From a bacterium (GTDB taxonomy: Bacteria; Patescibacteriota; Minisyncoccia; UBA6257; GWB1-50-10), in the NCBI GenBank assembly GCA_021815205.1, contig JAKAHD010000004.1, positions 4,990 to 68,989 on the forward strand: DNA of 64,000 nt, in the 5' to 3' direction. Below, in pieces: positions 21,156 through 54,082 of the stretch. The notes beneath the pieces are model-generated. The model saw only the letters and a program-made list of their open reading frames with translations, searched no databases and had not been told where the DNA came from. Position numbers and translations under genes: made by a program. The stretch's first letter is position 1; each line of letters starts with the position of its first letter.

Positions 21156-22253
21156 TTACTTCGTCACCGCAAACGGATTCTTCGCGCCGTACACCTCAAA
21201 GTGCAGGTGGCAGCCCGTGGGCCCGTGCGTGTTTCCCGTGTTGCCCATAAGTCCTATTGTTTCTCCCTGCGTCACGTAGTCGCCGGGTTTTACGAGCGCC
21301 TTCGCGAGGTGTGCGTATCGCGTCCGGGTGCGGTTCGGATGCTCGACCAGCACGAAGATCCCATACCCGTTGTTCCATCCTCCGGCGCCGCTTCCCAAAC
21401 TCTCGTCGGAGATAACGAGTCCCTCGGCGGCCGCATTGACCGGCGTGCCGCACTGATTCGCGATATCAATCGCATTATAGTCGTGCAGTTCGCCCCAGTT
21501 CCATCCGATCGCGGGAAGGGAAAAGTAATTTTTGAGATCGGGGAGGTTCGCGACGTCCGCCGCCAATCCCTGCCGACGCTCGGAGGGGAGCGACTGTGCG
21601 TAAGGAAGGGTGATACTCCCGCTCCCGTTACTCAATGCCGTCTCGTAGTTTGGGTTATATTTCTTAATAAGCTCGCTGTCAATGTGATAGCGGCTCGATA
21701 TGTCTTGCAGAGTATCACCGCGCCGCACGTGATACACAATTCCCGATACGGGAAGGATGAGGAGTTTCTGCCCCACACTCAACCTTGATCCGACGCCTGG
21801 ATTTGCCCGAAGTATCGTCTCCTCCGAAACTTGAAAACGGACGGCAATACTCGTAATAGTATCTCCGCGACGCACCTTGTACTCCTTAAGTCCTCCGCCT
21901 ATCGGTGAGAGGTTGCTTAATGGATTTGAAGACGCCACCACCGCCGTATTGTCCGCGACCAAGACGCCATTCAACGCGGGTTCAGATAACCGAAGCGTCG
22001 AGGAGGGGGGTGTTGCTCCCGCAGAGGCCGCAATCGTCTCCGGTTTCTGCACCGGTCCTCCAAATCCCCACAGATCTTCGTTTTGATAGACATCTGCGCG
22101 CTTCATGTTCGCCCCGAAGGCCGTCCCGAAGAGCGCGAGGGCGAGTACAAAAAGCACCGACCAGAAGCTGGTCGTTCTTGGAACCCCTCGTTTCCAGAGG
22201 GTCTTTAATTGAGACAAGATCGTACTTATGGGTAGAGTATAGCACATCTCCAT
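21156..22253 (-). CDS. Peptidase M23 family protein with two LysM domains (cell-wall hydrolase)
   Basis: Two LysM motifs (VRRGDTITSIAVRF and VRRGDTLQDISSRY). M23 catalytic HxH motif (CHLHFEV) and GNTGN.TGPH. Confidence 0.8.
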   Translation of the reverse strand: MEMCYTLPISTILSQLKTLWKRGVPRTTSFWSVLFVLALALFGTAFGANMKRADVYQNEDLWGFGGPVQKPETIAASAGATPPSSTLRLSEPALNGVLVADNTAVVASSNPLSNLSPIGGGLKEYKVRRGDTITSIAVRFQVSEETILRANPGVGSRLSVGQKLLILPVSGIVYHVRRGDTLQDISSRYHIDSELIKKYNPNYETALSNGSGSITLPYAQSLPSERRQGLAADVANLPDLKNYFSLPAIGWNWGELHDYNAIDIANQCGTPVNAAAEGLVISDESLGSGAGGWNNGYGIFVLVEHPNRTRTRYAHLAKALVKPGDYVTQGETIGLMGNTGNTHGPTGCHLHFEVYGAKNPFAVTK

Positions 22254-22413
22254 TCCGGGGCAATGGCACGCATCTCACGGGTACAATCAATGTGGATGTT
22301 AAGACGATGAGAGGAGTATGGTAAAAATTTCTAATTTCTAATTGACCTAATGTCTAATGAGACCGTCCCTGCTCCTCTTCCGATTATCTCCTGTGAGGCG
22401 GTACAATGAACGT

Positions 22414-23529
22414 ATGCCACGAAAGCTGGGTCAGCATTTTTTGAAGAACAAGGATGCTATCAAAAAAACGGTTGCCGCACTCGATGTGAAGGACGGCGAT
22501 ATTGTTATTGAAGTGGGGCCGGGGCATGGAGAACTCACAGAATATCTCAAAATGCAAAAATCAAAATGTAAAATTATCGCCATCGAAAAAGATGCGCGGC
22601 TTGCAAATTTCCTTGAAAAGAAATTTTTGTCATATTCCCATCCCGCCAGCTCTCCTTTTCTCCGTCATCCTGAGTCCTCCTCTTCGGCGGACGAAGGATC
22701 TCTCCACGGAGATTCCTCTCCGCCAAAGGCGGATCGGAATGACAGGAAGGGTGGGTGGCGGACTTGGAATAACAACGGGGAAGAGAGTCGGAGGGTTGAG
22801 ATTATTCACGGCGACATTTTAAAAATCCTTCCCACCATCATTGCCGAAGTAATGAATGAAGAAGATTCCCGTGCGGCGGAAAAAGTGGGTGAAGGACTGC
22901 GTCCTTCTTCCGACATCGTTCGGCTGAAATATGAGCATGCTCTTATTTCACTCCTCGCTCGTCGGAATAGGACTTGGGCTAGCGCCCCGGAGCGCACACT
23001 TTTTCTGCCGCACGGGAATCTTTCGTACAAACTCATCGGCAACATTCCCTACTACCTCACGGGGTATCTTCTCCGCACAATAAGCGAGCTCCCGATTCTT
23101 CCCGAGCGCGCGGTCTTCATGATTCAAAAGGAGGTTGCGGAGCGGATTGTGGCGCTCCCGCCGCGCATGAACCTCCTTGCGGCGAGCGTTCGCTACTGGA
23201 GCGATCCCAAAATCATAGCCGCCGTCTCAAAAGACGACTTTTCCCCGCCCCCCAAGGTCGAGTCCGCGGTGATACTCCTCAAAACACTCCCTTCTGCGAC
23301 AAAAACTCGCACACTCCCGAAAGAAAACTACTACCGCGCCGTGAAATTACTCTTTGCACACCCGAGAAAAACTATCTTGAACAACATTAGGCCTGGTTTT
23401 CATCCCTTCCAGAACGATTTTTTGGGCGAACTTGAGCGGGCGGGCATCAATCCGGAGGGAAGGCCCCAGAATCTGAGCGTACATGATATAAAAAAGATAA
23501 GCGAAATAGTGTACAATATGAATGAGTAA
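22414..23529 (+). CDS. rsmA: 16S rRNA (adenine1518/1519-N6)-dimethyltransferase RsmA/KsgA, carrying two in-frame insertions derived from repeat families A and B
   Basis: LGQHFL...EVGPGHGELT...IAIEKD and C-terminal KsgA motifs. About 100 extra residues relative to typical KsgA are encoded by repeat sequences at 22672-22746 and 22971-23003. Confidence 0.8.
   Translation: MPRKLGQHFLKNKDAIKKTVAALDVKDGDIVIEVGPGHGELTEYLKMQKSKCKIIAIEKDARLANFLEKKFLSYSHPASSPFLRHPESSSSADEGSLHGDSSPPKADRNDRKGGWRTWNNNGEESRRVEIIHGDILKILPTIIAEVMNEEDSRAAEKVGEGLRPSSDIVRLKYEHALISLLARRNRTWASAPERTLFLPHGNLSYKLIGNIPYYLTGYLLRTISELPILPERAVFMIQKEVAERIVALPPRMNLLAASVRYWSDPKIIAAVSKDDFSPPPKVESAVILLKTLPSATKTRTLPKENYYRAVKLLFAHPRKTILNNIRPGFHPFQNDFLGELERAGINPEGRPQNLSVHDIKKISEIVYNMNE
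22672..22746. repeat. Head-to-head pair of family A repeats inserted in frame in rsmA
   Basis: CGTCATCCTGAGTCCTCCTCTTCGGCGGACGAAGGATC ... GATTCCTCTCCGCCAAAGGCGGATCGGAATGAC. Confidence 0.65.
22971..23003. repeat. Family B repeat inserted in frame in rsmA (encodes TWASAPERTL)
   Basis: Identical core to 9633-9668. Confidence 0.7.
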
Positions 23530-25931: not shown

Positions 25932-27617
25932 ATGAAGCGGCCTCTGAAAAAAATCCTCATTCCCGCGGCGCTCCTTGCGCTCGTGTTCTTTGTGGTGCCG
26001 CATCTCGCGTATGCAATATGGCCGTTTCCTTCGCTGGGGGAGATTGTCTCGGGAGTGTTGCGGTTACTTGCGTATGTTCTAAATTTCATCTTCGGGACTC
26101 TCTTTATGCTCGGCGCGATGCTCGCGAAAGCGATACTCGATCTGAACTTCAATATCCTCACCACTCAGAACGGCCTGGTGCAGGTGGGGTGGAAAATCTC
26201 GCGCGACCTTGCAAATCTCGGCTTTGTGCTCCTCATTATTTTTATCGCGTTCGGCACCATCCTCCGCATCGAGAGTTACGGGGCGAAGAAGCTCCTTCCA
26301 ATGCTCATCGGGGCCGCGATCATCGTGAACTTCAGCTTGGCAATCGGCGGCGTATTCATCAACTTCTCGAACGTCCTCTCAAACTCGTTCATTACGAAGA
26401 TGGGGGATAATTTTACTACGTCCATCGCGGGCGCCTTCGGCGCCCAGCGGCTCCTCTTGCCCCCCGACAATCCGCCGCCGCCCGACCCCGCGGAGCAGGG
26501 AGGAGCGCTCGTCGGTTTTTCGAGTGTGGTTTTGATCGGCCTCGCAAACTTGATTTTTATCTCCGTCTTTACGCTTATTGCGGCGCTCGTGATGTTCCTT
26601 ATCGCCGGCATGCTCCTTATCCGGTACATCGTGCTCTCGTTTCTCCTTATCCTCGCCCCGATCACATGGCTCTTCTGGGCGTTTCCATCCCTGAAGCATC
26701 TCTTCTCCAAGTGGTGGAGCTCGTTTATCGAGTGGGTGTTCTTTGCGCCCGCGATGCTCTTCTTTGTCTACATCGCGGTGCTTTCGGCGCAAAATCTAAA
26801 GGATGTTATCCAGCCCACTGGCTCCGGGTTTAGCGGTATTTTGAGCACTGTGATGTCAACGGGAATGCAGATGGTGGTCCTCGCAGGAGTTCTTGTGGGC
26901 GGCGTGATCGCCGCGCAGAAGATGGGGATCGCGGGGGCGAGCGCGGCGGTAAACGCCGGAAAGAAGGTGGGGAAGAGCACGCAGAAATGGGCGGGGAAAC
27001 AAGCCGCGAAGGGCGCTTCGTACCCGCTTCGCACCGTAACCGGAAGAAAAACGGCGGAAAAACTTCAAACATTCGGCGCAAAGAGCGGGTTTATTGGAAG
27101 AACTCTTTCGGCGCCTCTGCGACAAATTGGTGCCGCGTTAAGTGACGCGCGACTTAAGAGTGAGGACTACACCACGAAGGGGGTAAGAAACACCGTACGC
27201 GGCAGGTCTATTGAGGAGAATGCGAGGCGCCTCCCGCACGCTTCATCTGAAGAGAAGAATGAGATATTAAAATTCTTCCGAGATATGATAGCCCACGGCA
27301 ACACAGCCCAAAAAGAAGCGGCTAATAAAGCGGTTAGAAATGCCCCGGAAAGGGTGCTCGATAAAGAAGCGCGCCTGAAATTTCTCTACGGCGGTGGGGG
27401 AGTGGCTGGCACACGTTATGGGATGCCTAAATTGAAAAATGAGGGGAGATTTTTTCCAAGAATTGAGTTTAGAAATACATTCGTAGAAGAAAATATGCCA
27501 GAGACAAAAGAGGCGGACAAACTTGAACAAGTAAAACGTCTCCTATTTGAGGAGGGGGGTGGGGCCCCTGCTCCAGGCGGTACCGCACCTACCGGCGGAG
27601 GGAGCAACTCTCATTAG
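25932..27617 (+). CDS. VirB6/TrbL-like polytopic membrane protein with a hydrophilic C-terminal tail
   Basis: At least 7 predicted TM helices in the first ~330 aa, followed by a charged tail. Sits beside VirB3-like and VirB4 genes. Assignment is by architecture and context only. Confidence 0.5.
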   Translation: MKRPLKKILIPAALLALVFFVVPHLAYAIWPFPSLGEIVSGVLRLLAYVLNFIFGTLFMLGAMLAKAILDLNFNILTTQNGLVQVGWKISRDLANLGFVLLIIFIAFGTILRIESYGAKKLLPMLIGAAIIVNFSLAIGGVFINFSNVLSNSFITKMGDNFTTSIAGAFGAQRLLLPPDNPPPPDPAEQGGALVGFSSVVLIGLANLIFISVFTLIAALVMFLIAGMLLIRYIVLSFLLILAPITWLFWAFPSLKHLFSKWWSSFIEWVFFAPAMLFFVYIAVLSAQNLKDVIQPTGSGFSGILSTVMSTGMQMVVLAGVLVGGVIAAQKMGIAGASAAVNAGKKVGKSTQKWAGKQAAKGASYPLRTVTGRKTAEKLQTFGAKSGFIGRTLSAPLRQIGAALSDARLKSEDYTTKGVRNTVRGRSIEENARRLPHASSEEKNEILKFFRDMIAHGNTAQKEAANKAVRNAPERVLDKEARLKFLYGGGGVAGTRYGMPKLKNEGRFFPRIEFRNTFVEENMPETKEADKLEQVKRLLFEEGGGAPAPGGTAPTGGGSNSH

Positions 27618-27629
27618 TAATCGCTTATT

Positions 27630-29243
27630 ATGCCAAACGAAGAACGTGAAAACTTATACTGGATTCCCATCCTCGACGATTCCGTCTGGGAGCCGCTTCA
27701 GAAAAAAAACTATGCCGACGCCGAGCTTGCACTCGGAAGCATACTTGAATCCCTTTCCCCCCACGAATGGAATGTGGTGTTTTGGGCGGCGCTTATAGAA
27801 GGGTTCCCGATTGTGCGCGGAGAGCTCACCGAAAAAGAGTGGCGGGAGAACGTGCAGCCGATGCTCGCAAGATTGGTGCTTCAAATCGCCTCCGGAGAAG
27901 CTACCGCCAATATATTCAGCGAGCTGGTCTCATATCCCGACACCGCACAAAAATTCGAAACGCTTCTCATTTACACCTCAACAACCGCGGATGTCGAGAG
28001 TGAAATAAAAATCAAAAAAATAAATCGTCCGCTCTATACCTTCCTTATTGCAAGTCCTGCTCAAGAACTCTTTTCTCCTTTATCGCCATACCGTATCGCA
28101 AGGATTTCTTCGGTGGTGGTGAGCCAGCGCTACACCACAATCCCAGAAAAACTCAAAGATGAACTCTTCTCCTACGCAACCGCCGAAGATATTGCGAGGA
28201 TCGCGGGGGAACAACATCTTTCTCCTGAAAAGACGAATGTGATCGCGACACTTACCGGAAGGGTGCTCCTTGGATTTCTCCACCTTGAGGATATGAAAAA
28301 AGAAATTCAAAAAACACTTGATTTGGATCCGCGGCTTACGGACGCGGTCTATCAGGCGCTCGACAAAAAAATATTTTCTGAATTCAAGGACGAAATCCAC
28401 GAGGTGTATGATCCCGTAATTATCCAAACAAAACCGTCGGAAACCGGGTCCTCGCCGGAACCCGAAGAAAAAACAATCACCTTCGCGGGACTCGAGAAAG
28501 ACGCCCTAGGACCGGAAGAAAACGTGCCGGTGCGTATCTCGAGCGCTCCAATAGAAGAAAAGAAGGAAGACAACCCGTTCGTGCTTCAAGAAGAGAAGCC
28601 GCTTGAGACGGCGGGGGGCACGATGACGGGGAAAAAGTTTTCATTTTCGCTCGGCGGATTCTTCAAACCAAAGAAGAAGGACGAATCCGTCTCCCGGGAA
28701 CCCGTAAAGGCAAAGATAGAGCTTTTTGGCGGAGACAAAGACGAGAAAAGAGTAATTCATTATAGTGAGCTCCGCACGCCGCTCGAGGCGAGAGAAGAGG
28801 ACATCTTCAAGCTAAAAGAAGAACAGCCGATTAGTCCGATAGGACAGATTGGTCCTATCGGTCCAATTGGTCAAATTGGTCCAATTGGTTCTGTTGGTAG
28901 TCCTACCAGTCCTATTAGTCCAATTGATTCCAATTCCGCTTCCGCCCCTTCTCCGCTCACGCCTCCATCTACGAAGAAATCCCCCTGGGCGTTCAAGTGG
29001 TTCGGCTCCCAGGCGCCCGCCCGCGATGAGCAGAAAGCGGTTCCTGAAAATAAGACCGTGGGTGAAACATCGTTCGAGGAAAAACCGGAAGAGAAAAAAG
29101 AAAAAGAACCAGTTAGTCCTATCAGTCAAATTGGTCCAATCAATCCTATAAGTCCAATAGGTTCAATCAGTCCTATCACAGACGAACCCAAGAACCCCAC
29201 CATTGAGGGGAATATTGTGGACTTACGCACGCTCAAAAAATAA
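27630..29243 (+). CDS. Hypothetical soluble protein with Gly-X-Y / PIS tandem repeats near the C-terminus
   Basis: No TM helix. Contains GQIGPIGPIGQIGPIGSVGSP, encoded by 9-bp tandem repeats. Confidence 0.45.
   Translation: MPNEERENLYWIPILDDSVWEPLQKKNYADAELALGSILESLSPHEWNVVFWAALIEGFPIVRGELTEKEWRENVQPMLARLVLQIASGEATANIFSELVSYPDTAQKFETLLIYTSTTADVESEIKIKKINRPLYTFLIASPAQELFSPLSPYRIARISSVVVSQRYTTIPEKLKDELFSYATAEDIARIAGEQHLSPEKTNVIATLTGRVLLGFLHLEDMKKEIQKTLDLDPRLTDAVYQALDKKIFSEFKDEIHEVYDPVIIQTKPSETGSSPEPEEKTITFAGLEKDALGPEENVPVRISSAPIEEKKEDNPFVLQEEKPLETAGGTMTGKKFSFSLGGFFKPKKKDESVSREPVKAKIELFGGDKDEKRVIHYSELRTPLEAREEDIFKLKEEQPISPIGQIGPIGPIGQIGPIGSVGSPTSPISPIDSNSASAPSPLTPPSTKKSPWAFKWFGSQAPARDEQKAVPENKTVGETSFEEKPEEKKEKEPVSPISQIGPINPISPIGSISPITDEPKNPTIEGNIVDLRTLKK
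28829..28935. repeat. 9-bp tandem repeat tract (ATYGGTCMA)n inside the CDS
   Basis: agtccgataggacagattggtcctatcggtccaattggtcaaattggtccaattggttctgttggtagtcct. A second tract lies at 29110-29180. Confidence 0.7.
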
Positions 29244-29734
29244 TGGAATTCCAAGTACCCCAGTTTATAGAACAGAAGCCGAAAATTGTGGGGCCCCTCA
29301 CACTCTCGCAATTTTTTTACCTCGCGGGCGCCGCGATTGTGAGCTTCGTCTCCTTCAGGATATTCACTTTTTTCCTGTGGCTTCTCATCACGCTCATCTT
29401 CGGCGCCGTAGGCGTTACGCTTGCATTCGTGAAGATAAACGGACAGCCATTCCCGAAACTCATCGGCTCCGCGTTCAATTACTTCTGGGGGCCGCGCGTC
29501 TATACCTGGCAGAGAAAAGCGCCCCAAACCACCATCGATCTCCAGAAGATCGAGGAGATTGAGAACCTGCGGGAGCATATGCGCGTACAAGAGCGGCTTA
29601 AAAACATGGCGCTCTCCGTGATGACGGGGAAGTTCTTCCTTAAAAAACCGGAAACGGAAGACCAAAACCGGTATGAGACGGTGGTGTATCTTACGGGAGA
29701 GCGGAAGCAGGCGAAGAGAGTGGATTACTCATAA
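29243..29734 (+). CDS. VirB3/PrgI-like small membrane protein (2 TM)
   Basis: IEQKPKIVGPLTLSQFFYLAGAAIVSF followed by a second TM helix. Lies immediately upstream of VirB4. Its start overlaps the previous stop (TAATG). Confidence 0.45.
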   Translation: MEFQVPQFIEQKPKIVGPLTLSQFFYLAGAAIVSFVSFRIFTFFLWLLITLIFGAVGVTLAFVKINGQPFPKLIGSAFNYFWGPRVYTWQRKAPQTTIDLQKIEEIENLREHMRVQERLKNMALSVMTGKFFLKKPETEDQNRYETVVYLTGERKQAKRVDYS

Positions 29735-29973
29735 TGAGAATGGAAAGAACTCGGAACTTTACACGACTAAAAAGTGTGCGCTCCGGGGCAACAAGCCCCA
29801 AGTCTTATTCCGACGAGCGGGGAGTGAAATAGGGGCATGCTCACATATTTCAGCCGAACGATGTCGGAAGAAGGACGCAGTCTTTCACCCACTTTTTAGT
29901 CGTTAAAGTTCCTCGACGTTATTTTTGAGATTATTCATAATTCGTATAAAATAGAGGTAGAGGTACTACATAC

Positions 29974-30615
29974 ATGGCGGAACCGACGCAAGCATCGCAA
30001 CAATTTGTAAAGATAAAAGAGATTCGAGACGGCATTCTCTATATGAAGGGTGGCGGCCTGAGGCAGGTGCTTATGGTGAGCGGCATCAACTTTGAGCTGA
30101 AATCTGAGGGCGAGCAGGCGACGATCTTGGGCACGTTCCAGAAGTTCTTGAACTCGCTCGATTTCGGCGTCCAGTTCTTCATCCATTCGCGGAAGACGAA
30201 TATTGAAAAATATCTCGCAAACATGGAGGAGTGTAAGAAGGGGGAGACGAATGAGCTTCTGCGCGTTCAGATCGAGGAGTACATCAACTTCATTCGCACG
30301 TTCGTCGAGGAGAACGCCATCATCAACAAAAGTTTCTTTATCGTAGTGCCCTACGATCCCGTCTCGCTTACCGCGGGGAAGGGCGGCTTTTTGGACGGGC
30401 TGTTCGGCAAGAAATCAAGCATATCGAAAGAACAGCAGAAGCAGGCAACGGACGCGGAGAACGTCGCCCAACTCAAGGAGCGCGCGACCCAGGTCATCGA
30501 GGGGCTCGCGGTTATGGATCTCCGCACGGTGCCTTTGGAGGACGAGGATCTCGTCGAGTTGTTCTACAACCTCTACAACCCGAAGCTTGTCGATAAAAAA
30601 GGAGTTACCGCATGA
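29974..30615 (+). CDS. virB4: VirB4/TrbE-family ATPase, N-terminal domain, encoded as a separate 213-aa gene
   Basis: Directly precedes the Walker-A-containing VirB4 part and overlaps it by ATGA. The combined length of 796 aa equals a typical VirB4. Confidence 0.55.
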   Translation: MAEPTQASQQFVKIKEIRDGILYMKGGGLRQVLMVSGINFELKSEGEQATILGTFQKFLNSLDFGVQFFIHSRKTNIEKYLANMEECKKGETNELLRVQIEEYINFIRTFVEENAIINKSFFIVVPYDPVSLTAGKGGFLDGLFGKKSSISKEQQKQATDAENVAQLKERATQVIEGLAVMDLRTVPLEDEDLVELFYNLYNPKLVDKKGVTA

Positions 30616-32363
30616 AAATAAATATTCCCAAAGCATACAAACCCGGAAGCGAAGACCTCCCGAACATCATCGCGCCCGCGGGGCTCGAAGTGAACGCGAA
30701 CTACCTGAAGCTCGGCGATTATTACGCGAAGACCTTTTTCGTATTCACGTATCCGCGTTATCTTTCCGCGGGGTGGTTCTCGGATATTATCAACTTACCC
30801 GCCATGATGGATATCTCGATTGTGATGTACCCGATGGATACCGCGCTCGCGCTCCGAAATCTCCGGAAGAAGGTGGCACAGATCGAGGCGGAGATCGGCG
30901 AGAAACAAGAGAAGGGGCTCGTGCGCGACCCCATGCTCGAGACCGCCTATGAGGATGTGGAAACGCTCCGCGATGCGCTCCAGCAGGCGCGTGAGCGTCT
31001 CTTCGAGGTAGGGGCGTATATCACGATCTATGCCGCAACCCTGAACGACCTCTCAGACCTCGAAAATAAGATTACGAACGCCTTGGAGAGCAAGCTGGTA
31101 TACATAAAACCCTCACTCTTTCGGCAAAGCGAGGGGTTGAACTCCGTTTTCCCGATTGCCTCGGATGAGCTTGCGGTCCGCACGCCCTTGAATACCGGCC
31201 CCGCCTCATCACTCTTCCCTTTTATCTCGCCCGACCTCACCTCCGAGAAAGGCATTCTCTATGGGGTGAATATGCACAATAACAGCTTGATTATCTTCGA
31301 CCGTTACTCGCTCGAAAACGCGAATATGACGATTTTTGCGAAGTCGGGTTCCGGGAAATCATACGCGGCAAAGCTCCAGATCCTCCGCTCGATGATGCTT
31401 GGCACGAACGTGATTGTGATTGACCCCGAGAACGAGTACGAGAACCTCGCAAATGCGATCGGCGGGAGTTACTTCAAAATTTCGCTTACTTCGCCGAGCC
31501 ACATCAACCCGTTCGATATTCCGATTATTCCCGAGGGAGACGAGCCGGCGGATGTATTTAAGTCGCACGTCCTCAATCTCACGGGGCTCATAAAACTCAT
31601 GCTCGGCGAGATTACTCCGGAAGAGGAATCGCTCCTTGACCGGGCAATCACCGAGACCTACGCCTCGCGCGATATCAACGCGGAGAACTTCGGCACCATG
31701 AAGGAGTTCAACCCGCCGCTCCTCGAGGACTTCCAGACGATTCTTATGAACACCGAAGGGGGGCGCGGGATCGGCCAGCGTCTTGATAAGTTCACCCACG
31801 GATCGTATTCCGGCTTCACAAACGCCCCGACGAATGTTGATATCAAGAACCGCCTCATCGTTTTCTCGATCCGCGACCTTGAGGAAGAGCTTCGCCCGAT
31901 CGCGATGTATATCATTCTGAATTTTGTGTGGAACATCATCCGCTCGGAACTGCGGCAACGAATGCTTGTGATCGATGAGGCGTGGCTTATGATGAAACAT
32001 AAGGACAGTGCCTCGTTCCTCTTCGGCCTCGTGAAGCGCGCGCGGAAATATTATCTCGGCGTCGTCACGATCACGCAGGATGTGGACGACTTCCTGAAAT
32101 CGGAGTATGGGAAGCCGATTATTACAAACTCCTCCCTCCAGTTGCTTCTGAAACAATCGCCAAGCTCGATTGATATTCTTACCAAAGCGTTCAGCCTCAC
32201 GGAGGGTGAAGCGGCGTTTCTCTTGCAGGCGGGGATAGGAGAAGGACTCTTCTTCGCGGGGCTGAAGCATGTTGCAATCAAGATCATTCCTTCGTACACG
32301 GAAGATCAGATTATTACCACAAACCCAGAACAAATCATGGAGATTAAGGGGCTCCAGCGATAA
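30612..32363 (+). CDS. virB4: VirB4/TrbE-family conjugal-transfer ATPase, C-terminal ATPase domain
   Basis: Walker A FAKSGSGKSYAAK, Walker B MLVIDEAWLMM and C-terminal VirB4 motifs (GVVTITQDVDD). 583 aa. Confidence 0.75.
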   Translation: MKINIPKAYKPGSEDLPNIIAPAGLEVNANYLKLGDYYAKTFFVFTYPRYLSAGWFSDIINLPAMMDISIVMYPMDTALALRNLRKKVAQIEAEIGEKQEKGLVRDPMLETAYEDVETLRDALQQARERLFEVGAYITIYAATLNDLSDLENKITNALESKLVYIKPSLFRQSEGLNSVFPIASDELAVRTPLNTGPASSLFPFISPDLTSEKGILYGVNMHNNSLIIFDRYSLENANMTIFAKSGSGKSYAAKLQILRSMMLGTNVIVIDPENEYENLANAIGGSYFKISLTSPSHINPFDIPIIPEGDEPADVFKSHVLNLTGLIKLMLGEITPEEESLLDRAITETYASRDINAENFGTMKEFNPPLLEDFQTILMNTEGGRGIGQRLDKFTHGSYSGFTNAPTNVDIKNRLIVFSIRDLEEELRPIAMYIILNFVWNIIRSELRQRMLVIDEAWLMMKHKDSASFLFGLVKRARKYYLGVVTITQDVDDFLKSEYGKPIITNSSLQLLLKQSPSSIDILTKAFSLTEGEAAFLLQAGIGEGLFFAGLKHVAIKIIPSYTEDQIITTNPEQIMEIKGLQR

Positions 32364-32366
32364 ACT

Positions 32367-32807
32367 ATGGCGGAACTCTCAAGGGCCGCCTCGGGGGCGG
32401 CATCAAAAACAAAAGGAAGCACGGGAAAGAGCGCCCCTGCACGTTCCGACGAGCCCATATCCGAAGTTACAAACAAGTTCGAGCTCTCCGAGATCGTGGT
32501 GGGAACAATCTACACTTTTACAACCGACGGTCTCTGCGCACTGCTTGATATCTTCACATTAGAATCATTTGCGGTAGCGAGTTGGGTGATACGAAACGGC
32601 GTCGCGGGCACCATCTGGATGTGGTTTTACGCGAAAAAAGATCCTCATGTAAAAAAAGCAGGACGACTCATTTTCAAAGGATTTGCGAACGCCACGCCGC
32701 TCTTTATTAACACGATTATGTTTCTCATTGAGGTATATATTCACAACCACCCCGAGAAGTTCGCGGCACTCGAGAAGGTCGCGGGAGCTACGGGCGGTAA
32801 GGCATAA
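32367..32807 (+). CDS. Hypothetical small membrane protein
   Basis: Two hydrophobic segments. Operon-internal position. Confidence 0.4.
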   Translation: MAELSRAASGAASKTKGSTGKSAPARSDEPISEVTNKFELSEIVVGTIYTFTTDGLCALLDIFTLESFAVASWVIRNGVAGTIWMWFYAKKDPHVKKAGRLIFKGFANATPLFINTIMFLIEVYIHNHPEKFAALEKVAGATGGKA

Positions 32808-32823
32808 GGTATAATATAAGAAA

Positions 32824-33522
32824 ATGGATTTTAGAAAATCAATCGGACTTATTGGATTAATGGGACTTATTGGTCTTATTGGCGTGTCTCACTCTTTTGC
32901 GCAAACCGCGCCTTCCGCCGCATCAAACGTCCAAGTTGTCATCACCTGGCAGGCGAATAATTACTTTCCGGCGGGATTCGAGGGAAAGTCGCTTCCCGCG
33001 CCTTATGCGCAGGTGGTCGCCTCCGTCGAACTTCTCGAAGACAATAAACTTGCCGATCTTTCTCAAGCCACAGTGAACTGGTTTGTGGACGACAAGTTCC
33101 AAAAATCGGGGGTGGGACTTAAAACATTTTCCTTCTATACCCAGCAGGAGGATTCCGGCTACGTGTCCGTGCGCGCGGTAATTGAGCTCCAGGGCGGGGG
33201 GGGCGCACGCGGCTCGCTTCAGATTCCCATAGTGGCGCCTACTTTGGTACTCTCCTACGCCGCTCCTTCAAACTCCGTAGCCGCAAACTCAAGCGTAACG
33301 CTCGCCGCAATCCCGTTCTCTTTTAACGTCTCATCCCCAAGCGATCTCACGTTCTTCTGGACCATCAATGGGGCTCAATCGAATGTTTCAGGAAACACCG
33401 TGAAGCTCCAACTCGGCGCCCCGACGCCCCTTGACCGGCTGCTCCAGATTTCGGTGAGCGCGCAGAATAACAAGAACCCGCTCGAGATCGGAAAAACAGC
33501 CGCAGCATTTCCCATACAATAA
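32824..33522 (+). CDS. Hypothetical secreted protein
   Basis: Signal peptide IGLIGLMGLIGLIGVSHSFAQ, encoded by the same 9-bp repeat in inverse orientation. Confidence 0.45.
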   Translation: MDFRKSIGLIGLMGLIGLIGVSHSFAQTAPSAASNVQVVITWQANNYFPAGFEGKSLPAPYAQVVASVELLEDNKLADLSQATVNWFVDDKFQKSGVGLKTFSFYTQQEDSGYVSVRAVIELQGGGGARGSLQIPIVAPTLVLSYAAPSNSVAANSSVTLAAIPFSFNVSSPSDLTFFWTINGAQSNVSGNTVKLQLGAPTPLDRLLQISVSAQNNKNPLEIGKTAAAFPIQ

Positions 33523-33544
33523 CAGAACATTAAAGAAAGATGTT

Positions 33545-35113
33545 ATGTTAAAAACAAAACTGAAAAATCTCACGCTAATCGTTTTCGTGTTCCTCGCGTT
33601 TTTTGCGGTTACCGCGATCAATACCGCCTACGCACAAAAGACCTTAAACCCGCCGCAACCGATCGTGAATGTGAATTTTCCGTGCCCGAGCCCCGGTTGC
33701 CAACCAATAACTTCCGACACCCAAGTTACCACCTATATTCAAACTTTCTACCAGTTCAGTTTATGGATCGGTGGCGCTTTGGCGCTTGGGATGATCGTCG
33801 CGGGAGGTATCGTGCGGATCCTATCCGCGGGAAGCCCTGACAAGATTCGCGAGGCGAACGATATGATCACCTCGGCGATCTTCGGTCTCCTCCTCCTTTT
33901 CGGCGCCTATCTTGTCCTCAACACTATAAATCCCCAGCTCACACTCTTGAAACTCCCTGCCGCGGGAGAAGCATCAACCGAAAAAGCGCAACTCACGGAA
34001 AAACTCTCCGACACAAACTGCGTCGCGCCGGGCGTCGAGGACTTCGCAAACATCCCTGTGTGGAACGGGGTAAAACAAATAAGCGTGTTGCATTGCATTT
34101 ACAGGCAAGAAGTTGGACACAATCCAGTTTCTAATGGTTTTGGGTTTGTGGCCGGCGATTACTATGCCGAAGATTTTGCGATTCCGAATGGTTCAATGGT
34201 GTGGAAATATCCGTATTTTACTGGAACGAGCCCCACCGCTACCGCGAAGTGTTTGGTGTACGCCTACAAGGAACCGGGGGTTGGCAAAACGGTGCAGATG
34301 ACTCCGCTCAATTCGAGTTTGAAGTTATGCACTCCGCTATATCAGAATTTGGGGGGGCCTGTATGTAAGGAGTGGCAGTTCTCCGCGAGAGAATCAAAAA
34401 CAAAGGATTTCAAAAACCCCGATCAGTTTGTTACCCGCACCTTCACCGATAAGACATTTCAAAGGGATCCTTTGAGTCCTCCAACCGTTCCTTCTTTCGC
34501 AAGGGACTACTGGGGAGATAATCCTATTTATTACTGCATAAACCCGGATGGGAGTGAAAATAAGAACACCTACTGCGCAAACGAAAACGCCGCTCCTTTC
34601 TGGACGTGCACGGTAGCGGAAAATCCGCCGTCAATACAGAACAAGGATACACCCATAGTGAGTCCGTGCGCCGACTGCGAAGACCTCCCCCCCAACTTTT
34701 CTGTGAACGGCAATCCGTGCGACAAGACGATTGATAACACCACCCTTAACTCCCACAAAGGGTACTGCAGACTTAATAAAAAGTTTACAGCCGATCTCGA
34801 TAAATTCAATAAGCTGATGCAAGCGGCAAAAAACTCTTCTGGGGGAACGGGAATTTCCTGGCAAATCACCGAGGCGTGGCCGAATACGGTGTATCACTCG
34901 TCCCCCTGCCACTACGACGGGCAGTGCGCCGACATCGCGCTCACCGGAAACGTAACGTGTGCGGACGTACAGAAAACAATGGATATTTTGAAATCGAGTG
35001 CGGGGGGCGGATTTTTTAGATCCCTCAACGAGTACGCTCGGCCGCCGCTTGTGTGTAATGCAGAGGGAAACTATAAAACCACCACAGGCAACAACATCCA
35101 TGTGGAGTGGTGA
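33545..35113 (+). CDS. Pilin-like (TrbC/VirB2-type) N-terminal module fused to a ~390-aa Cys-rich extracellular domain. Putative tip or adhesin pilin.
   Basis: Signal peptide ...NTAYAQ, a Cys/Pro-rich stretch, and two TM helices flanking AGSPDKIREAND (same layout as pilins 1-4). The large domain that follows has more than 20 Cys. Confidence 0.5.
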   Translation: MLKTKLKNLTLIVFVFLAFFAVTAINTAYAQKTLNPPQPIVNVNFPCPSPGCQPITSDTQVTTYIQTFYQFSLWIGGALALGMIVAGGIVRILSAGSPDKIREANDMITSAIFGLLLLFGAYLVLNTINPQLTLLKLPAAGEASTEKAQLTEKLSDTNCVAPGVEDFANIPVWNGVKQISVLHCIYRQEVGHNPVSNGFGFVAGDYYAEDFAIPNGSMVWKYPYFTGTSPTATAKCLVYAYKEPGVGKTVQMTPLNSSLKLCTPLYQNLGGPVCKEWQFSARESKTKDFKNPDQFVTRTFTDKTFQRDPLSPPTVPSFARDYWGDNPIYYCINPDGSENKNTYCANENAAPFWTCTVAENPPSIQNKDTPIVSPCADCEDLPPNFSVNGNPCDKTIDNTTLNSHKGYCRLNKKFTADLDKFNKLMQAAKNSSGGTGISWQITEAWPNTVYHSSPCHYDGQCADIALTGNVTCADVQKTMDILKSSAGGGFFRSLNEYARPPLVCNAEGNYKTTTGNNIHVEW

Positions 35114-36467: not shown

Positions 36468-36896
36468 TTAAATGTTGATGTGTTTAATAATGATGTGGCG
36501 GTCCTTGCCTTCACCGTCGCTTTCCGTCTTAAGATCGGGGTTGGTTGCTATTTCCACATGCACCAAACGGCGTTCGTAGGCATTCATTGGGGGAAGCGCC
36601 ACATCCGTTTTTGTGAGAATCGCCTTCTTCGCGCCCGCCTTTGCGAGCTCAATAATCAGTCGTTCACGTTCTCTGCGATAATAATTTACGTCCACCACAA
36701 ACGAGGGGAGGTTCTCTCTGCGAAGCATGAGGTTTATGAGGTGCTCGAACGCGGGGAGTGCGGTAGGGAGTTGGGAGCGAAAGAGCTCGTCGTCCACCAC
36801 CACAAGCACCTTCCGGTGCTCCTCGTCAACCGAGACCTGATGCTCTGGAAATCCCATAAGCTCCAGAAGTTTTTGTATGTGTGCGGTTATGTTCAT
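36468..36896 (-). CDS. jag: Jag/KhpB-like RNA-binding protein (R3H domain)
   Basis: Position downstream of yidC and a C-terminal R3H-like sequence. Confidence 0.6.
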   Translation of the reverse strand: MNITAHIQKLLELMGFPEHQVSVDEEHRKVLVVVDDELFRSQLPTALPAFEHLINLMLRRENLPSFVVDVNYYRRERERLIIELAKAGAKKAILTKTDVALPPMNAYERRLVHVEIATNPDLKTESDGEGKDRHIIIKHINI

Positions 36897-37582
36897 GTGG
36901 ACTGTTCTGCGATGGCTATCTTCTTATTGATATATATCTGTTGTACCAGAGAAAAGACGTTTGACACAAGCCAGTAGAGCCCAAGTGCCGCCGGAAGGTT
37001 GCCGAGAATAAGGAGGGTGAGAAGGGGTCCTATATACATCATAATCTTCTGCATGGACGCGGTCGGGTCTTTGTGCTCGCCGCGGGCGGATGGCTCACTC
37101 TTTTTCGCAAACATCATTTTACTTTGGAAAAACTGGAGCATCGCGGCAAGCAGTACCAACACGAAGTTTTTGTCGGCAAGATCAATAAACCCAAGAAACC
37201 CCCGAGTCGCGAACTCCGTTCCCGATATTCCCGTAGTAAAGATTTGAAAGAGCGCGATAAAGATCGGGATTTGGATAAGAAGAAGCAAAAAACCGGAGAA
37301 GGGGTTTACGCGGTGTTCTTGATACAGCGCCATCAACTCCTTCGCCTGACGCTCTTTATTGTCTTTGTGCTCGGTTTGAATCCTTTTTACGTGCGGCTGG
37401 AGGCGCTGCATTATCGTCTGATCTTTTGCGCTCTTATGGAAGAGAGGAAGGAGGATGAGCCGCACCGCTATAGTGAGTTCAATAATCGCGATGCCAAGGT
37501 CGCCGAAAGAAACGTACTGATAGAAAAAAATCAAAACCGAGAAGATCGGCGTGTAGAGATAAGTATGAAAGAGTGTGCTCAT
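36893..37582 (-). CDS. yidC: Membrane protein insertase YidC (short Oxa1-type form)
   Basis: Five TM helices, conserved YidC core. Overlaps jag and rnpA by 4 nt each. Confidence 0.8.
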   Translation of the reverse strand: MSTLFHTYLYTPIFSVLIFFYQYVSFGDLGIAIIELTIAVRLILLPLFHKSAKDQTIMQRLQPHVKRIQTEHKDNKERQAKELMALYQEHRVNPFSGFLLLLIQIPIFIALFQIFTTGISGTEFATRGFLGFIDLADKNFVLVLLAAMLQFFQSKMMFAKKSEPSARGEHKDPTASMQKIMMYIGPLLTLLILGNLPAALGLYWLVSNVFSLVQQIYINKKIAIAEQST

Positions 37583-38266: not shown

Positions 38267-39643
38267 ATGGAGAACAATGAGCTTTGGGAAAACGTCTTGG
38301 GAGACATAGAGCTTCAAATCTCCAGGCCAAATTTTTTGACGTGGCTGAAGCATAGCAAACTCTTGGATAAAAATGAGCGGGAAGGGATCGTGATGGTGGG
38401 ACTTCCGAATAATTTCGCGAAAGAGTGGGTAAAGAGCCGGTATCATAAGCTTATCCTTGGGTCGTTGCGAAACATCGATGGCTCAATAAAAAACGTTGAT
38501 TACACGGTGGTGAATCAAAACCCATTGCGGCCACCCCACACCGCGGCAAAGAATGCGCAAGAGGAGGCGTCGTTTTTGGAATCGCAATCACCACTTCTCG
38601 AACCGGAAGTGAATCCTAAAACCAACCTGAACCCAAGATACACCTTCGATTCGTTCGTGGTTGGCTCCTCGAATGAGATTGCGCACGCCGCGGCGGAGGC
38701 GGTGGCGAAGGATATTGGAAAAAAGTACAACCCCCTCTTCGTGTATGGGGGTGTGGGGCTTGGAAAAACACACCTTATTCAGGCGGTGGGGAATAGGGTC
38801 GCCGCACGACACAAACATGCGGTAAACGTGCTTTACGCCTCCTCCGAAAAATTCATTAATGATGTGGTGTGGGCGGTACGGAATAGGCGGATGGAAGACG
38901 TGAAGAAAAAATATCGCGACATTGATGTGTTGATTGTAGACGACATCCAGTTTATAGGAGGAAAGACGGCAACCGAACAGGAGTTTTTTTATACCTTCAA
39001 CACGCTTTATGAACACAATAAGCAAATAATCATTTCTTCTGATAGGCCGCCAAACTCCATTCCGACACTTGAGGAGCGTCTGCGATCGCGTTTTGAGGGG
39101 GGGATGATTGTGGATGTGGGGTACCCCGATTATGAAACGCGTCTTGCTATTTTGAAAACCAAGGCGCGTGAGCGGGGTTTTTTCATAGACGACAAGGTGC
39201 TCGAAGAGGTTGCCGCAAGGGTTCAAAAAAACATACGCGAACTTGAGGGGGTTTTAAATAAGGTGGTGTTTTATGAGCAGTGTAAAAATGAGAAGATAGA
39301 CGAAAAAAAGCTCAACGAGATAATAAGTGAAGCGGTGCAAGTAACTCCAAAAAACATTACCGCGAATGATGTAGTGAGAGCGGTGGCGGATTTTTTTGAG
39401 GTTGCTCCAAACGACATAACAAACCGCAGTAGGAAACAGGAGGTGGTGCAACCCCGCCAGATCGCGATGTATCTTCTTCGGGATATGTTAAAACTTTCCT
39501 ATCCGCATATCGGCGACCGCCTTGGAAAAAGGGACCATACCACCGCGATACACGCGTGTGAAAAAATCACAAAGGAATGCAGCCGTGATCCGGGATTAAA
39601 CCAAAAAATACTGCTTATAAAAGAACGTTTGTATAAGATGTGA
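38267..39643 (+). CDS. dnaA: Chromosomal replication initiator DnaA
   Basis: AAA+ Walker A GGVGLGKTHL. C-terminal DNA-binding domain (IGDRLGKRDHTTAIHA). Confidence 0.93.
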   Translation: MENNELWENVLGDIELQISRPNFLTWLKHSKLLDKNEREGIVMVGLPNNFAKEWVKSRYHKLILGSLRNIDGSIKNVDYTVVNQNPLRPPHTAAKNAQEEASFLESQSPLLEPEVNPKTNLNPRYTFDSFVVGSSNEIAHAAAEAVAKDIGKKYNPLFVYGGVGLGKTHLIQAVGNRVAARHKHAVNVLYASSEKFINDVVWAVRNRRMEDVKKKYRDIDVLIVDDIQFIGGKTATEQEFFYTFNTLYEHNKQIIISSDRPPNSIPTLEERLRSRFEGGMIVDVGYPDYETRLAILKTKARERGFFIDDKVLEEVAARVQKNIRELEGVLNKVVFYEQCKNEKIDEKKLNEIISEAVQVTPKNITANDVVRAVADFFEVAPNDITNRSRKQEVVQPRQIAMYLLRDMLKLSYPHIGDRLGKRDHTTAIHACEKITKECSRDPGLNQKILLIKERLYKM

Positions 39644-39821: not shown

Positions 39822-40925
39822 ATGAAATTAATATTACTAAAAACTAACTTAGTAGACGCGTTAGGATCTGTGGAGCGTGCGGTAAACGAGAGTTCGAGTC
39901 TTCCAATTCTTAAACACGCGCTTGTGAAAACGGTTGGGGGGAAGATTCTTCTTGTGGGAACAAACCTCGAGCTCGCGATCGAGTACTCACTCCCCGGAAA
40001 AGTGATTGAAGGAGGCGAGATCGCGGTTCCTTTCTCGCTTTTTAACTCCCTTATTAAGAATCTTATGGCGGAGCGGGTCGCGATTGAGGAAAAAGACCGA
40101 AAAATAACCATCACCACCGATAATTACGAGGCGGTACTTCAAGGGCAAGACGCCGCGGAGTTTCCTATAATTCCATCTATTCAGAAACAAACACCACCTC
40201 TCTTGTTTCCTACGGAGCTCTTTCGCGGCGCCCTTCAAAATGTAATTGTCGCCGCCCAGTACTCCGATATACGCCCAGAGATAAGCGGAGTGTATTTTAA
40301 GTGCTCCGGTCGGATGATTACACTTGCCGCAACGGATGGGTTTCGCCTTGCTGAAGAAAAAATAAATCTCCCCCCCACCGCCTCTTCTCAAGACACCGCC
40401 GCGATTATTCCTCTTAAAACCGCCTCTGAAGCCCTGAAAATGTTTAAGGGATCAGAGGAGATAACCGTGTGCATCGAGCCGAACCAAATTCTTCTCTCTT
40501 CCCCAAACGAGAAAATAATCTCGCGCCTTATTGACGGATCATTTCCTGAGTATCATGCAGTAATTCCCCACCACCCCCCGCACGAAGTCACGGTTAATCG
40601 CGCGGAGTTTATAAACGCCGTTCGTCTTGCGAGCCCCTTTTCCGGAAGAGCGAACGATGTTATTGTGCGTCTCGGGGAAAATAAAAAAGTACTCGAGGTG
40701 TATTCGGTTGATAGCGCGCTGGGAGAGAGTTTATACAAGATCCCCGTGAAGGGCAAGGGAGAGCGTTTCTCAATCATCTTTAATTGGAAATATCTTCTTG
40801 ATGGACTCAAGGTGTTCTCGGGAAATGAGGTGACGCTTGGGGTTACCTCATCCGACCGGGCGGTGCTCCTCCAGAACCCGAAAGAGCCAAACCTTTTATA
40901 TGTGGTAATGCCTATTAAGGGGTAA
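39822..40925 (+). CDS. dnaN: DNA polymerase III beta sliding clamp
   Basis: 367 aa, three-domain clamp. Canonical position after dnaA. Confidence 0.88.
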   Translation: MKLILLKTNLVDALGSVERAVNESSSLPILKHALVKTVGGKILLVGTNLELAIEYSLPGKVIEGGEIAVPFSLFNSLIKNLMAERVAIEEKDRKITITTDNYEAVLQGQDAAEFPIIPSIQKQTPPLLFPTELFRGALQNVIVAAQYSDIRPEISGVYFKCSGRMITLAATDGFRLAEEKINLPPTASSQDTAAIIPLKTASEALKMFKGSEEITVCIEPNQILLSSPNEKIISRLIDGSFPEYHAVIPHHPPHEVTVNRAEFINAVRLASPFSGRANDVIVRLGENKKVLEVYSVDSALGESLYKIPVKGKGERFSIIFNWKYLLDGLKVFSGNEVTLGVTSSDRAVLLQNPKEPNLLYVVMPIKG

Positions 40926-53856: not shown

Positions 53857-54082
53857 ATTCTCCTTCGCCCGAATACCTCCGTCGCGTGCGATGAGGATGA
53901 ATCCCGTTAGAAGCTCACACGGGGTATTAAACCCCGCGTTCGCCACGGGACGAGGCATTCATCCCCGTGGCAAGCCACGGGGTTTCCTGCTTCTCACGGG
54001 ATGAAGGGCGAAGGGGAACCTTTCCGTAGTCCGCTCGAGGCGGACGAAGGAGGGTTGGCTTCGGATGAATTCCGATACCGCG
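53857..54082. repeat. Family C repeat, long form (~225 bp) with an internal multi-hairpin insert
   Basis: Ends match 17607-17702. The interior has three GC-rich hairpins, and the left end pairs with GGGCGAAGGGGAA at 54002-54013. Confidence 0.55.

Follow-up and report, generated by a model that had tools for sequence, protein, structure and literature searches.

The window, i.e., the whole stretch of 64,000 nt of a Patescibacteriota contig analysed here, carries a cluster of type IV secretion system (T4SS) genes at 25,932-35,113, which comprises a VirB6-like gene, a PrgI/VirB3-like gene, two open reading frames that we will refer to as ORF1 and ORF2, and a pilin-like gene. ORF1 (29,974-30,615, + strand) starts with ATG and encodes 213 aa, corresponding to a stand-alone first half of a VirB4 N-terminal domain (TrsD-like, PF26593 "TraC-like"). 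ORF2 (30,612-32,363, + strand), also with an ATG start, encodes 583 aa, which include the second half of the same domain (approximately residues 1-200) and the P-loop ATPase domain of VirB4 (the signature T4SS ATPase). The junction between them reads ...GTT ACC GCA TGA, the ORF2 start codon being 30,612-30,614, and thus the stop of the former gene and the start of the latter overlap in the ATGA at 30,612-30,615 (+), with ORF2 read in the -1 frame relative to ORF1. The 3' end of ORF1 contains a Shine-Dalgarno-like AAGGAG (30,599-30,604, +), which precedes the ORF2 ATG by 7 nt, and the Walker A motif AKSGSGKS was located by sequence and alignment at ORF2 residues 243-250 (31,338-31,361, +). The ORF pair, its ATGA overlap, the Walker A motif in ORF2 and a summed length of 796 aa had been proposed in the first-pass annotation, and all of them are present as described. 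Nonetheless, ATGA overlaps are ordinary in the window, where a crude gene call gives them for 3 of the 39 pairs of adjacent genes on the same strand; the overlap by itself is no more than the chance expectation, and the non-trivial part is the content of the ORFs.

The operon is tightly packed, with successive gaps of 12, -1, 239, -4, 3, 16, and 22 nt. The 239-nt gap lies 5' of ORF1 and contains a weak promoter-like site, TTGAGA-16 nt-TAAAAT (29,925-29,952, +; 10 of 12 matches in a consensus scan alone); the same scan gave no comparable site directly 5' of ORF2. Directly 5' of ORF1 lies a member of the VirB3-like PrgI family (29,243-29,734, +; PF12666, E 1.8e-7, 32.1 bits, cutoff 27), the protein expected to partner the VirB4 N-terminal domain at the membrane, and this PrgI-ORF1-ORF2 order is also found in relatives and in Bacillota megaplasmids. 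The cluster further includes a TrbL/VirB6-like membrane protein (25,932-27,617, +; PF04610, E 1.2e-4, below the Pfam cutoff, with PF19590 TrbL_3 precomputed for an identical gene) and a protein with a T4SS pilin domain (33,545-35,113, +; PF18895, E 4.2e-9, 36.8 bits, cutoff 26.6). Hence, VirB3-like and VirB6-like partners are encoded together with VirB4. The surrounding genes are ksgA (22,357-23,529), yidC and jag (36,468-37,582), dnaA (38,267-39,643, about 6 kb 3' of ORF2), and dnaN (39,822-40,925), and neither a relaxase nor a VirD4 match was found among the genes scanned at 21-43 kb of the window. This combination of VirB4, TrsD, PrgI, VirB6 and VirB2-like pilin, chromosomal and near dnaA, is that of the origin-proximal T4SS of Patescibacteria.

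The two ORFs match complementary, non-overlapping stretches of four full-length VirB4 models, ORF2 covering only the later positions. ORF2 matches positions 189-734 of 752 of the NCBIfam model CD1110 (E 8.6e-112, 374.8 bits, cutoff 325), together with PF19044 (E 5e-30), and its residues 233-569 match the VirB4 C-terminal domain structure 4ag5 (E 6e-47). Residue 446 of TrwK, the VirB4 of R388, aligns with ORF2 residue 238, at the Walker A region, in which G459, G461, K462, and S463 are invariant (alignment A5); ORF2 thus contains a VirB4-type P-loop ATPase domain with its Walker A. Taken alone, it lacks the first ~200 residues found in fused homologues and in TrwK. On the other hand, profile searches place ORF1 at N-terminal model positions only (2-104 of 752 in CD1110, 19-171 of 792 in TIGR00929, 105-233 of 894 in VirB4_plasma), and it aligns with residues 1 to ~215 of natural fused VirB4 proteins. 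It also has a match, below the cutoff, to the TrsD/TraD model NF041427 (E 1.6e-5, 24.8 bits, cutoff 200), and PF26593 is assigned in precomputed annotation to a protein identical to it. A PDB sequence search with ORF1 alone returned nothing meaningful, but TrwK/VirB4 chains were the only specific matches in a fold search; the similarity to VirB4 N-terminal domains on which the earlier proposal depended is therefore present, by profile as well as by fold. ORF1-type proteins, mostly still annotated as "hypothetical," are stand-alone in all of the best 120 matches (209-227 aa) and in 148 of the best 150 cluster representatives. The layout is that of TrsD-type systems, a stand-alone protein of 213 aa with a 4-nt overlap onto a short VirB4 ATPase gene.

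Once joined, ORF1 and ORF2 are collinear, end to end, with 64 natural single-chain homologues of 775-809 aa (55-63% identity). The joined sequence was modelled with AF2 using natural fused proteins as bridging alignment rows (pLDDT 76, pTM 0.62), and the model matches full-length R388 TrwK/VirB4 with an E of 4.4e-27 and a moderate TM of 0.64/0.64 over 808 columns. A complete VirB4 N-terminal domain of ~400 residues is obtained only from the two ORFs together. The first-pass annotation had suggested that alignment to full-length VirB4 would place the break at the linker between the N-terminal and ATPase domains; collinearity holds over the full length, but the breakpoint falls elsewhere, within a variable loop midway along the N-terminal domain. 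Since the N-terminal domain of TrwK spans residues 15-400 (PMC9259494), the Walker A of ORF2 aligns at TrwK residue 446 and the 4ag5 match begins at about ORF2 residue 233, ORF2 retains ~200 residues of that domain. In the alignment, the junction corresponds to a length-variable, unconserved linker between the conserved motifs ELFYNLYNP..EK and IIAP.A.EV..NYLKLGD, and residues 211-222 of the AF2 model have a pLDDT below 50; the cut lies in a short, variable surface loop that is probably flexible. An internal duplication, with ORF1 and the N-terminal part of ORF2 as repeats, was also considered; both show the same order of secondary structure, but the sequences lend it no support (hhalign probability below 1%). 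On this evidence, the TrsD-type ORF1 is nothing more than the opening half of the N-terminal domain of VirB4, and we consider it very probable that ORF1 and ORF2 are the halves of one VirB4 encoded by two genes, which would rejoin as one protomer.

The split is widely shared. Among 80 related species-level loci, 79 are split, with gene 2 always directly downstream, and proteins identical to ORF1 and ORF2 recur in independent assemblies, being encoded by 7 contigs that come from ENA and from several Logan runs. Both observations agree with the earlier view of a stable two-gene VirB4, unlike a pseudogene, and with its expectation of the same split in orthologous loci. The sequence of the junction is much less constant: in the 79 split relatives the genes overlap or are at most 12 nt apart in 58 and are separated by 13-445 nt in 21, gene 2 is in frame with gene 1 in 18, at +1 in 33 and at -1 in 28, ATGA occurs in 15, and a Shine-Dalgarno-like core in only 11. 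The closest relatives (L004-L006) have kept the ATGA although neighbouring codons changed. The translational coupling that had been proposed is plausible at this locus, given the ATGA and the AAGGAG 7 nt 5' of the ATG, but it has only partial support, in view of the low frequency of ATGA and the long gaps in relatives.

Fused homologues of 775-809 aa also exist in related Patescibacteria. Fused and split forms interleave in a tree of close relatives, with at least four switches among the sampled Paceibacteria, the tree being a midpoint-rooted neighbour-joining one without support values, built on query-biased sampling, which does not polarise the direction of fission or re-fusion. Alternating fused and split proteins are ~80% identical in the ATPase part, and the split state is maintained across a large clade of 183 sequences. 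The interleaving among close relatives appears to be the modestly new element of the present work. Given this alternation and the free drift of the junction sequence, the split seems to be a state that evolution tolerates and not a dedicated device.

A dispersed inverted-repeat element of ~119 nt, for which we found neither an Rfam match nor a description in the literature, was also observed immediately next to start codons, some relatives carrying it precisely at the ORF1/ORF2-type junction. A tiny gene ("MNPVR...") had been considered between the two genes of long-gap relatives and was rejected, since conservation there is confined to an arm of the inverted repeat and does not extend to the peptide.

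Several other explanations of the locus deserve consideration. The -1 frame of ORF2 and the fused homologues of related Patescibacteria would fit an organism that really has one 796-aa gene, interrupted here by a frameshift from sequencing or assembly or by recent pseudogenisation. However, a stop codon separates the two genes identically in the independent assemblies, the junctions of the split relatives have many different sequences, none of them lacking a proper stop and ATG, and both halves are well conserved, so that neither a disruption private to this sequence nor the decay of one part is seen; this explanation is effectively refuted. It is highly unlikely that some fused VirB4 is made beside the separate chains through programmed -1 frameshifting of ribosomes at T AAA AAA G (30,594-30,601). 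ORF1 does contain the codons AAA AAA 12 nt before its stop and, as the ORF2 frame is open from 30,597 (after the TAA at 30,594-30,596) to the ATG at 30,612, a -1 slip would yield ...DKKRSYRMKINIPK..., fusing the two parts as in the natural single-chain proteins. Nonetheless, the heptamer is imperfect in having T at its X position, a stimulatory structure is absent at 5-9 nt downstream (the first hairpin-like site lies ~45 nt away), and the A-run is accounted for by the conserved KK of the motif (E/D)KKG; furthermore, gene 2 occupies all three relative frames across the split relatives, and thus there is no conserved frameshift signal. We regard as extremely unlikely a further reading, in which ORF2 would already be a complete VirB4 and ORF1 an accessory paralogue that duplicates the N-terminus. 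TrsD has been treated as a separate T4SS component that has no assigned function and shows no more than "remote homology" with the N-terminus of VirB4 (PMC12102498), and some stand-alone ORF1-like proteins bear C-terminal extensions of 280-432 aa; yet the ~200 residues missing from ORF2 are those to which ORF1 corresponds, the matches being complementary and not duplicated, hhalign detects no similarity of ORF1 to the N-terminal part of ORF2, and fused relatives have exactly one copy of each part.

The split might also be adaptive, the free N-terminal half allowing stoichiometry or timing to vary independently of the motor, for instance in PrgI/VirB3 docking or in the formation of VirB4 dimers. 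The N-terminal domain of R388 alone forms the VirB4 dimer interface and binds VirB3 and the VirB8 tails (PMC9259494), archaeal CedB and CedD divide a VirB4-like N-terminal domain (PMC11868833), the split has persisted across the 183-sequence clade, and the genes lie 100-445 nt apart in some relatives. On the other hand, the alternation of fused and split states between such similar proteins is what a near-neutral change predicts, and the predominance of junctions that overlap or span at most 12 nt favours equal synthesis; an adaptive origin seems unlikely, although conceivable. Equally doubtful is its more specific form, in which the first half of the N-terminal domain would be a dissociable subunit whose level or loading time controls PrgI/VirB3 docking and VirB4 dimerisation. 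If true, the switches between split and fused forms at one permissive loop would reflect selection on the architecture of an essential, non-conjugative T4SS.

Under the preferred reading of one VirB4 encoded by two genes, ORF1 would account for ~200 residues at the start of the N-terminal domain, and ORF2 for the remainder together with the P-loop motor. A single transcript would serve for both, their close spacing (ATGA and internal AAGGAG) may hold the amounts similar, and the two chains would associate non-covalently into a normal VirB4 protomer docked on PrgI/VirB3 at the membrane. The relevance is mainly for annotation and structural work: as TrsD corresponds to the opening half of the N-terminal domain, TrsD and the short VirB4 of Patescibacteria or pSK41-type T4SSs are to be treated as one protomer in models and pull-downs. 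The natural fused/split pairs constitute a ready test of whether chain continuity matters for this machine, without which at least one cultured Patescibacterium cannot lead its epibiotic life. The general understanding of type IV secretion is unchanged by a split VirB4.

The closest known system is the Patescibacteria T4SS of Quinonero-Coronel et al. 2025 (PMC12102498), from the same phylum, with the gene order VirB6-like/PrgI/TrsD-like/VirB4/pilins and the same origin-proximal chromosomal site with ksgA, dnaA, and dnaN nearby; nothing essential differs. TrsD-like proteins adjoin virB4 in ~1,660 Patescibacteria assemblies, and TrsD is essential in Ca. Southlakia epibionticum (PMC12102498). The layout of a TrsD-like protein with a short VirB4 is therefore widespread and already described, the locus in the window being an ordinary member, although that work makes no mention of the adjacent VirB4 being short, of complementary parts or of fused TrsD-VirB4 forms. 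The phrase "split VirB4" was not found in any paper in our literature search, and the main text of Guglielmini 2014 holds no explicit discussion of TrsD homology. The TrsD/TrsE pair of pSK41/pGO1 (MPF_FATA, pGO1 subclass) is a more distant parallel, in which a protein of ~227 aa is followed, 14 nt on, by a DUF87 ATPase of 672 aa. The start of pSK41 TrsE is homologous to that of ORF2 (ORF2 residue 15 corresponding to TrsE residue 33, E 2e-33), whereas staphylococcal TrsD is very distant from ORF1 (hhalign E 0.004, besides the low NF041427 score), and the pair belongs to a conjugative plasmid with relaxase and coupling protein, unlike the chromosomal system of the window. In Bacillota megaplasmids, likewise, an ORF1-like gene stands between PrgI and a downstream gene for a short DUF87 ATPase. 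Among single-chain proteins, TrwK of R388 (PDB 7o41, 8rtd) is one polypeptide instead of two and only 13-16% identical, but its whole chain is matched by the joined model; the CD1110 family is also single-chain, its model being shared out between ORF1 and ORF2. The single-chain VirB4 proteins of Colwellbacteria, Harrisonbacteria, and other Patescibacteria, the same that are 55-63% identical to the joined ORFs, carry both PF26593 and PF19044 and possess a linker without stop or start codon. Archaeal CedB and CedD, finally, have been proposed as a joint VirB4 equivalent, each contributing a different part of a VirB4-like N-terminal domain (PMC11868833), but they are paralogues, each with its own ATPase domain, whereas here the motor resides in ORF2 only.

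In the window, ORF1 (29974-30615, + strand; 213 aa) and ORF2 (30612-32363, + strand; 583 aa) are the halves of one VirB4, as claimed in the first-pass annotation, whose coordinates, lengths, ATGA overlap (30612-30615, + strand, the ORF1 stop TGA sharing bases with the ORF2 ATG) and Walker A motif (AKSGSGKS, ORF2 residues 243-250) are all present in the sequence. NCBIfam searches gave complementary matches, without overlap, to the full-length VirB4 models CD1110 (ORF1, 2-104, within the VirB4 N-terminal part; ORF2, 189-734, with 374.8 bits, above the cutoff), TIGR00929 (19-171 and 247-726) and VirB4_plasma (105-233 and 293-893). Using a natural fused relative as query, 101 single-chain proteins (775-809 aa) containing both PF26593, the family of ORF1, and ATPase domains were retrieved; the joined ORF1+ORF2 sequence is collinear with 64 of them (55-63% identity). 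The AlphaFold2 model of this joined sequence (mf372565b2268; pLDDT 76, pTM 0.62) found full-length TrwK/VirB4 of plasmid R388 in all of its top 13 fold matches (best match 8rtd_O, E 4.4e-27, query- or target-normalised TM 0.64, 808 columns), and the specific matches of the ORF1-alone model (pLDDT 74) were TrwK chains only.

The split is stable, as had also been proposed. When each species was represented by a single genome, 197 were found to encode a relative of ORF1. Among the best 80 of these, the ORF2 homologue always follows immediately in the same orientation; 79 pairs are split and one (locus L076) is fused in frame. Furthermore, identical ORF1, identical ORF2 and the same 4-nt overlap occur on seven contigs (an ENA assembly and several Logan runs), and a sequencing artefact or pseudogene is ruled out. 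The best 120 relatives of each protein are all of similar length (209-227 aa and 54-100% identity for ORF1; 580-593 aa for ORF2).

The break, initially placed at the linker between N-terminal and ATPase domains, lies instead midway through the N-terminal domain. In TrwK the N-terminal domain comprises residues 15-400 and the C-terminal domain residues 400-760 (PMC9259494). Since ORF2 residue 238 aligns with TrwK 446, and the crystallised Thermoanaerobacter VirB4 C-terminal domain (4ag5) aligns from ORF2 residue 233 onward, ORF2 retains about 200 N-terminal-domain residues, and ORF1 represents only the first half of that domain. Alignment with fused proteins situates the junction in a length-variable, unconserved linker flanked by the conserved motifs ELFYNLYNP..EK and IIAP.A.EV..NYLKLGD, and in the joined model it is a low-confidence segment (residues 211-222). 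Besides, ORF1 and roughly the first 180 residues of ORF2 (model residues 14-201 and 238-392; window 29974-31250) share the same secondary-structure order: three strands, helix, strand, two helices, strand, helix, strand, helix. This modelled likeness raises the possibility of an ancient tandem duplication behind the VirB4 N-terminal domain, with the cut falling between the repeats; hhalign detected no sequence similarity between ORF1 and the N-terminal part of ORF2.

The ATGA overlap is unremarkable by itself, because such overlaps occur in 3 of 39 same-strand neighbouring gene pairs of the window (crude gene call) and genes are tightly packed along the whole T4SS operon. With AAGGAG inside ORF1, 7 nt 5' of the ORF2 ATG, the translational coupling suggested earlier is plausible in the window genome; as a general trait it does not extend to the relatives, where ATGA is found at 15 of the 79 split junctions and an SD-like core 5' of gene 2 at only 11. 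The other junctions comprise gaps of 0-12 nt (39), 13-60 nt (8) or more than 60 nt (13, up to 445 nt), a 1-nt overlap (1) and other overlaps (3). ATGA itself is incidental. A fused VirB4 could in principle also arise from the window locus by a -1 slip at T AAA AAA G, which lies 12 nt before the ORF1 stop (window 30594-30615), the ORF2 frame being open from 30597 up to its own ATG. Nonetheless, the motif is probably coincidental: gene 2 uses all three frames relative to gene 1 among the split relatives (18, 33 and 28 loci), which counts against a conserved frameshift signal, a stimulatory structure is absent nearby in the window, and the A-run codes for a conserved KK.

Between the two separate genes, at least 8 of the 13 long-gap relatives, together with L086, carry a dispersed inverted-repeat element, exactly where the window has ATGA; in several relatives stop and start are both left intact. 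It measures 107-276 nt (mostly ~110-125) at junctions and ~100-130 nt overall, with inverted termini (A)TCCCGTTAGAG...CTCTAACGGG(AT), a 14-bp stem with compensatory changes at positions 12-14 and an unconserved interior; no match was found in Rfam, and no description in the literature. The window and the loci together have 24 copies, including a single window copy (53901-54002, + strand), and at least 120 metagenome stretches have the element as well; besides the window copy, its positions include L007 4642-4766; L023 4658-4777; L025 3300-3409, 4658-4767 and 6526-6635; L036 4640-4761; L060 4643-4764; L062 4692-4810; L074 4646-4921; L086 1596-1705 and 2896-3002; and L089-L208. Among 126 metagenome copies, 107 end in two bases that, with the G that follows, make up the ATG of an ORF of 60 aa or longer, the ATG-supplying end never occurring in both orientations; a perfect 5-nt direct repeat flanks 88 (ATGAA in 68, ATGGA in 15), and 18 have an upstream ORF whose end coincides with their left edge. 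The element appears MITE-like in behaviour, duplicating a 5-bp target and surviving at ATGRA starts and ATGA stop/start overlaps; the duplication preserves the upstream stop as well as the downstream start, and in the RNA the stem would rejoin them. Tandem or nested copies with ATGAA common to neighbours (L027 2134-2412 and 2415-2536; L086 1563/1596-1705) suggest repeated insertion into the duplicated target. At L086 2896-3002 the ORF1-like gene runs into the left arm and stops at a TAG there (CGT TAG), so that the element replaced the original stop and altered the protein C-terminus. Repeats of another kind, 9-nt tandem units (ATTGGTCCA, AGTCCAATC, GGACTTATT; window 28834-28925, 29115-29178, 32845-32882), code for PIGPIGQIG/SPISPI stretches in a 537-aa protein (27630-29243) and for IGLIGLMGLIG in the signal-peptide region of a 232-aa protein (32824-33522), both within the T4SS cluster.

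Fused and split forms interleave among relatives. Split-type ATPases of 568-573 aa, having their own upstream PF26593 gene (L086, L088), share 80-83% identity with the corresponding part of the fused L076 protein. An NJ tree built on the ATPase part and rooted at its midpoint (206 split and 102 fused sequences) requires at least four state changes, which may be fissions or re-fusions; this number is approximate, given the query-biased sampling and a tree without support values. The window belongs to a large clade of 183 sequences, all of them split. A library clustered at 50% identity contains 2,038 relatives of ORF1 (E <= 1e-3), the best 150 including 148 stand-alone proteins, a count biased against well-conserved fused forms.

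In the window, ksgA (22357-23529) is followed by the T4SS cluster, jag/yidC (36468-37582, - strand), dnaA (38267-39643) and dnaN (39822-40925), a layout that shares the dnaA-near location already described for Patescibacteria T4SS (PMC12102498). Within the region surveyed (21156-43468), an M23/LysM peptidase just upstream (21156-22253, - strand) could be the cell-wall hydrolase of the T4SS. The split VirB4 likewise exemplifies an arrangement that publications and family databases already cover: TrsD, remotely homologous to the VirB4 N-terminus, has 2,272 homologues, 1,664 adjoining virB4, lacks an assigned function and is essential in Ca. Southlakia epibionticum (Quinonero-Coronel et al., PMC12102498), and Pfam now lists the ORF1-type protein as PF26593 'TraC-like'. 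VirB4 length, complementarity and TrsD-VirB4 fusions are not discussed in that paper, and no paper with the phrase 'split VirB4' was found; our modest additions are explicit proof of complementarity, a homologous breakpoint in pSK41 and repeated fused/split switching. Staphylococcal pSK41 TrsE starts at a position homologous to the ORF2 start (ORF2 15 = TrsE 33, E 2e-33), with trsD (227 aa) 14 nt upstream of its gene. Many stand-alone ORF1-like proteins have 280-432 aa, not ~213 aa, with an extra C-terminal region of unassigned nature (library representatives P0404, P0411, P0412, P0419, P0424, P0438, P0459, P0492 and others; L084 3875-4873, L085 3875-4831). These include the forms of Bacillota megaplasmids, where PrgI is followed by an ORF1-like 'hypothetical' (318-332 aa) and a DUF87 ATPase (636-641 aa), the partner thus being longer too. 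An analogy exists in archaea, where CedB carries one part of a VirB4-like N-terminal domain and CedD another (PMC11868833).
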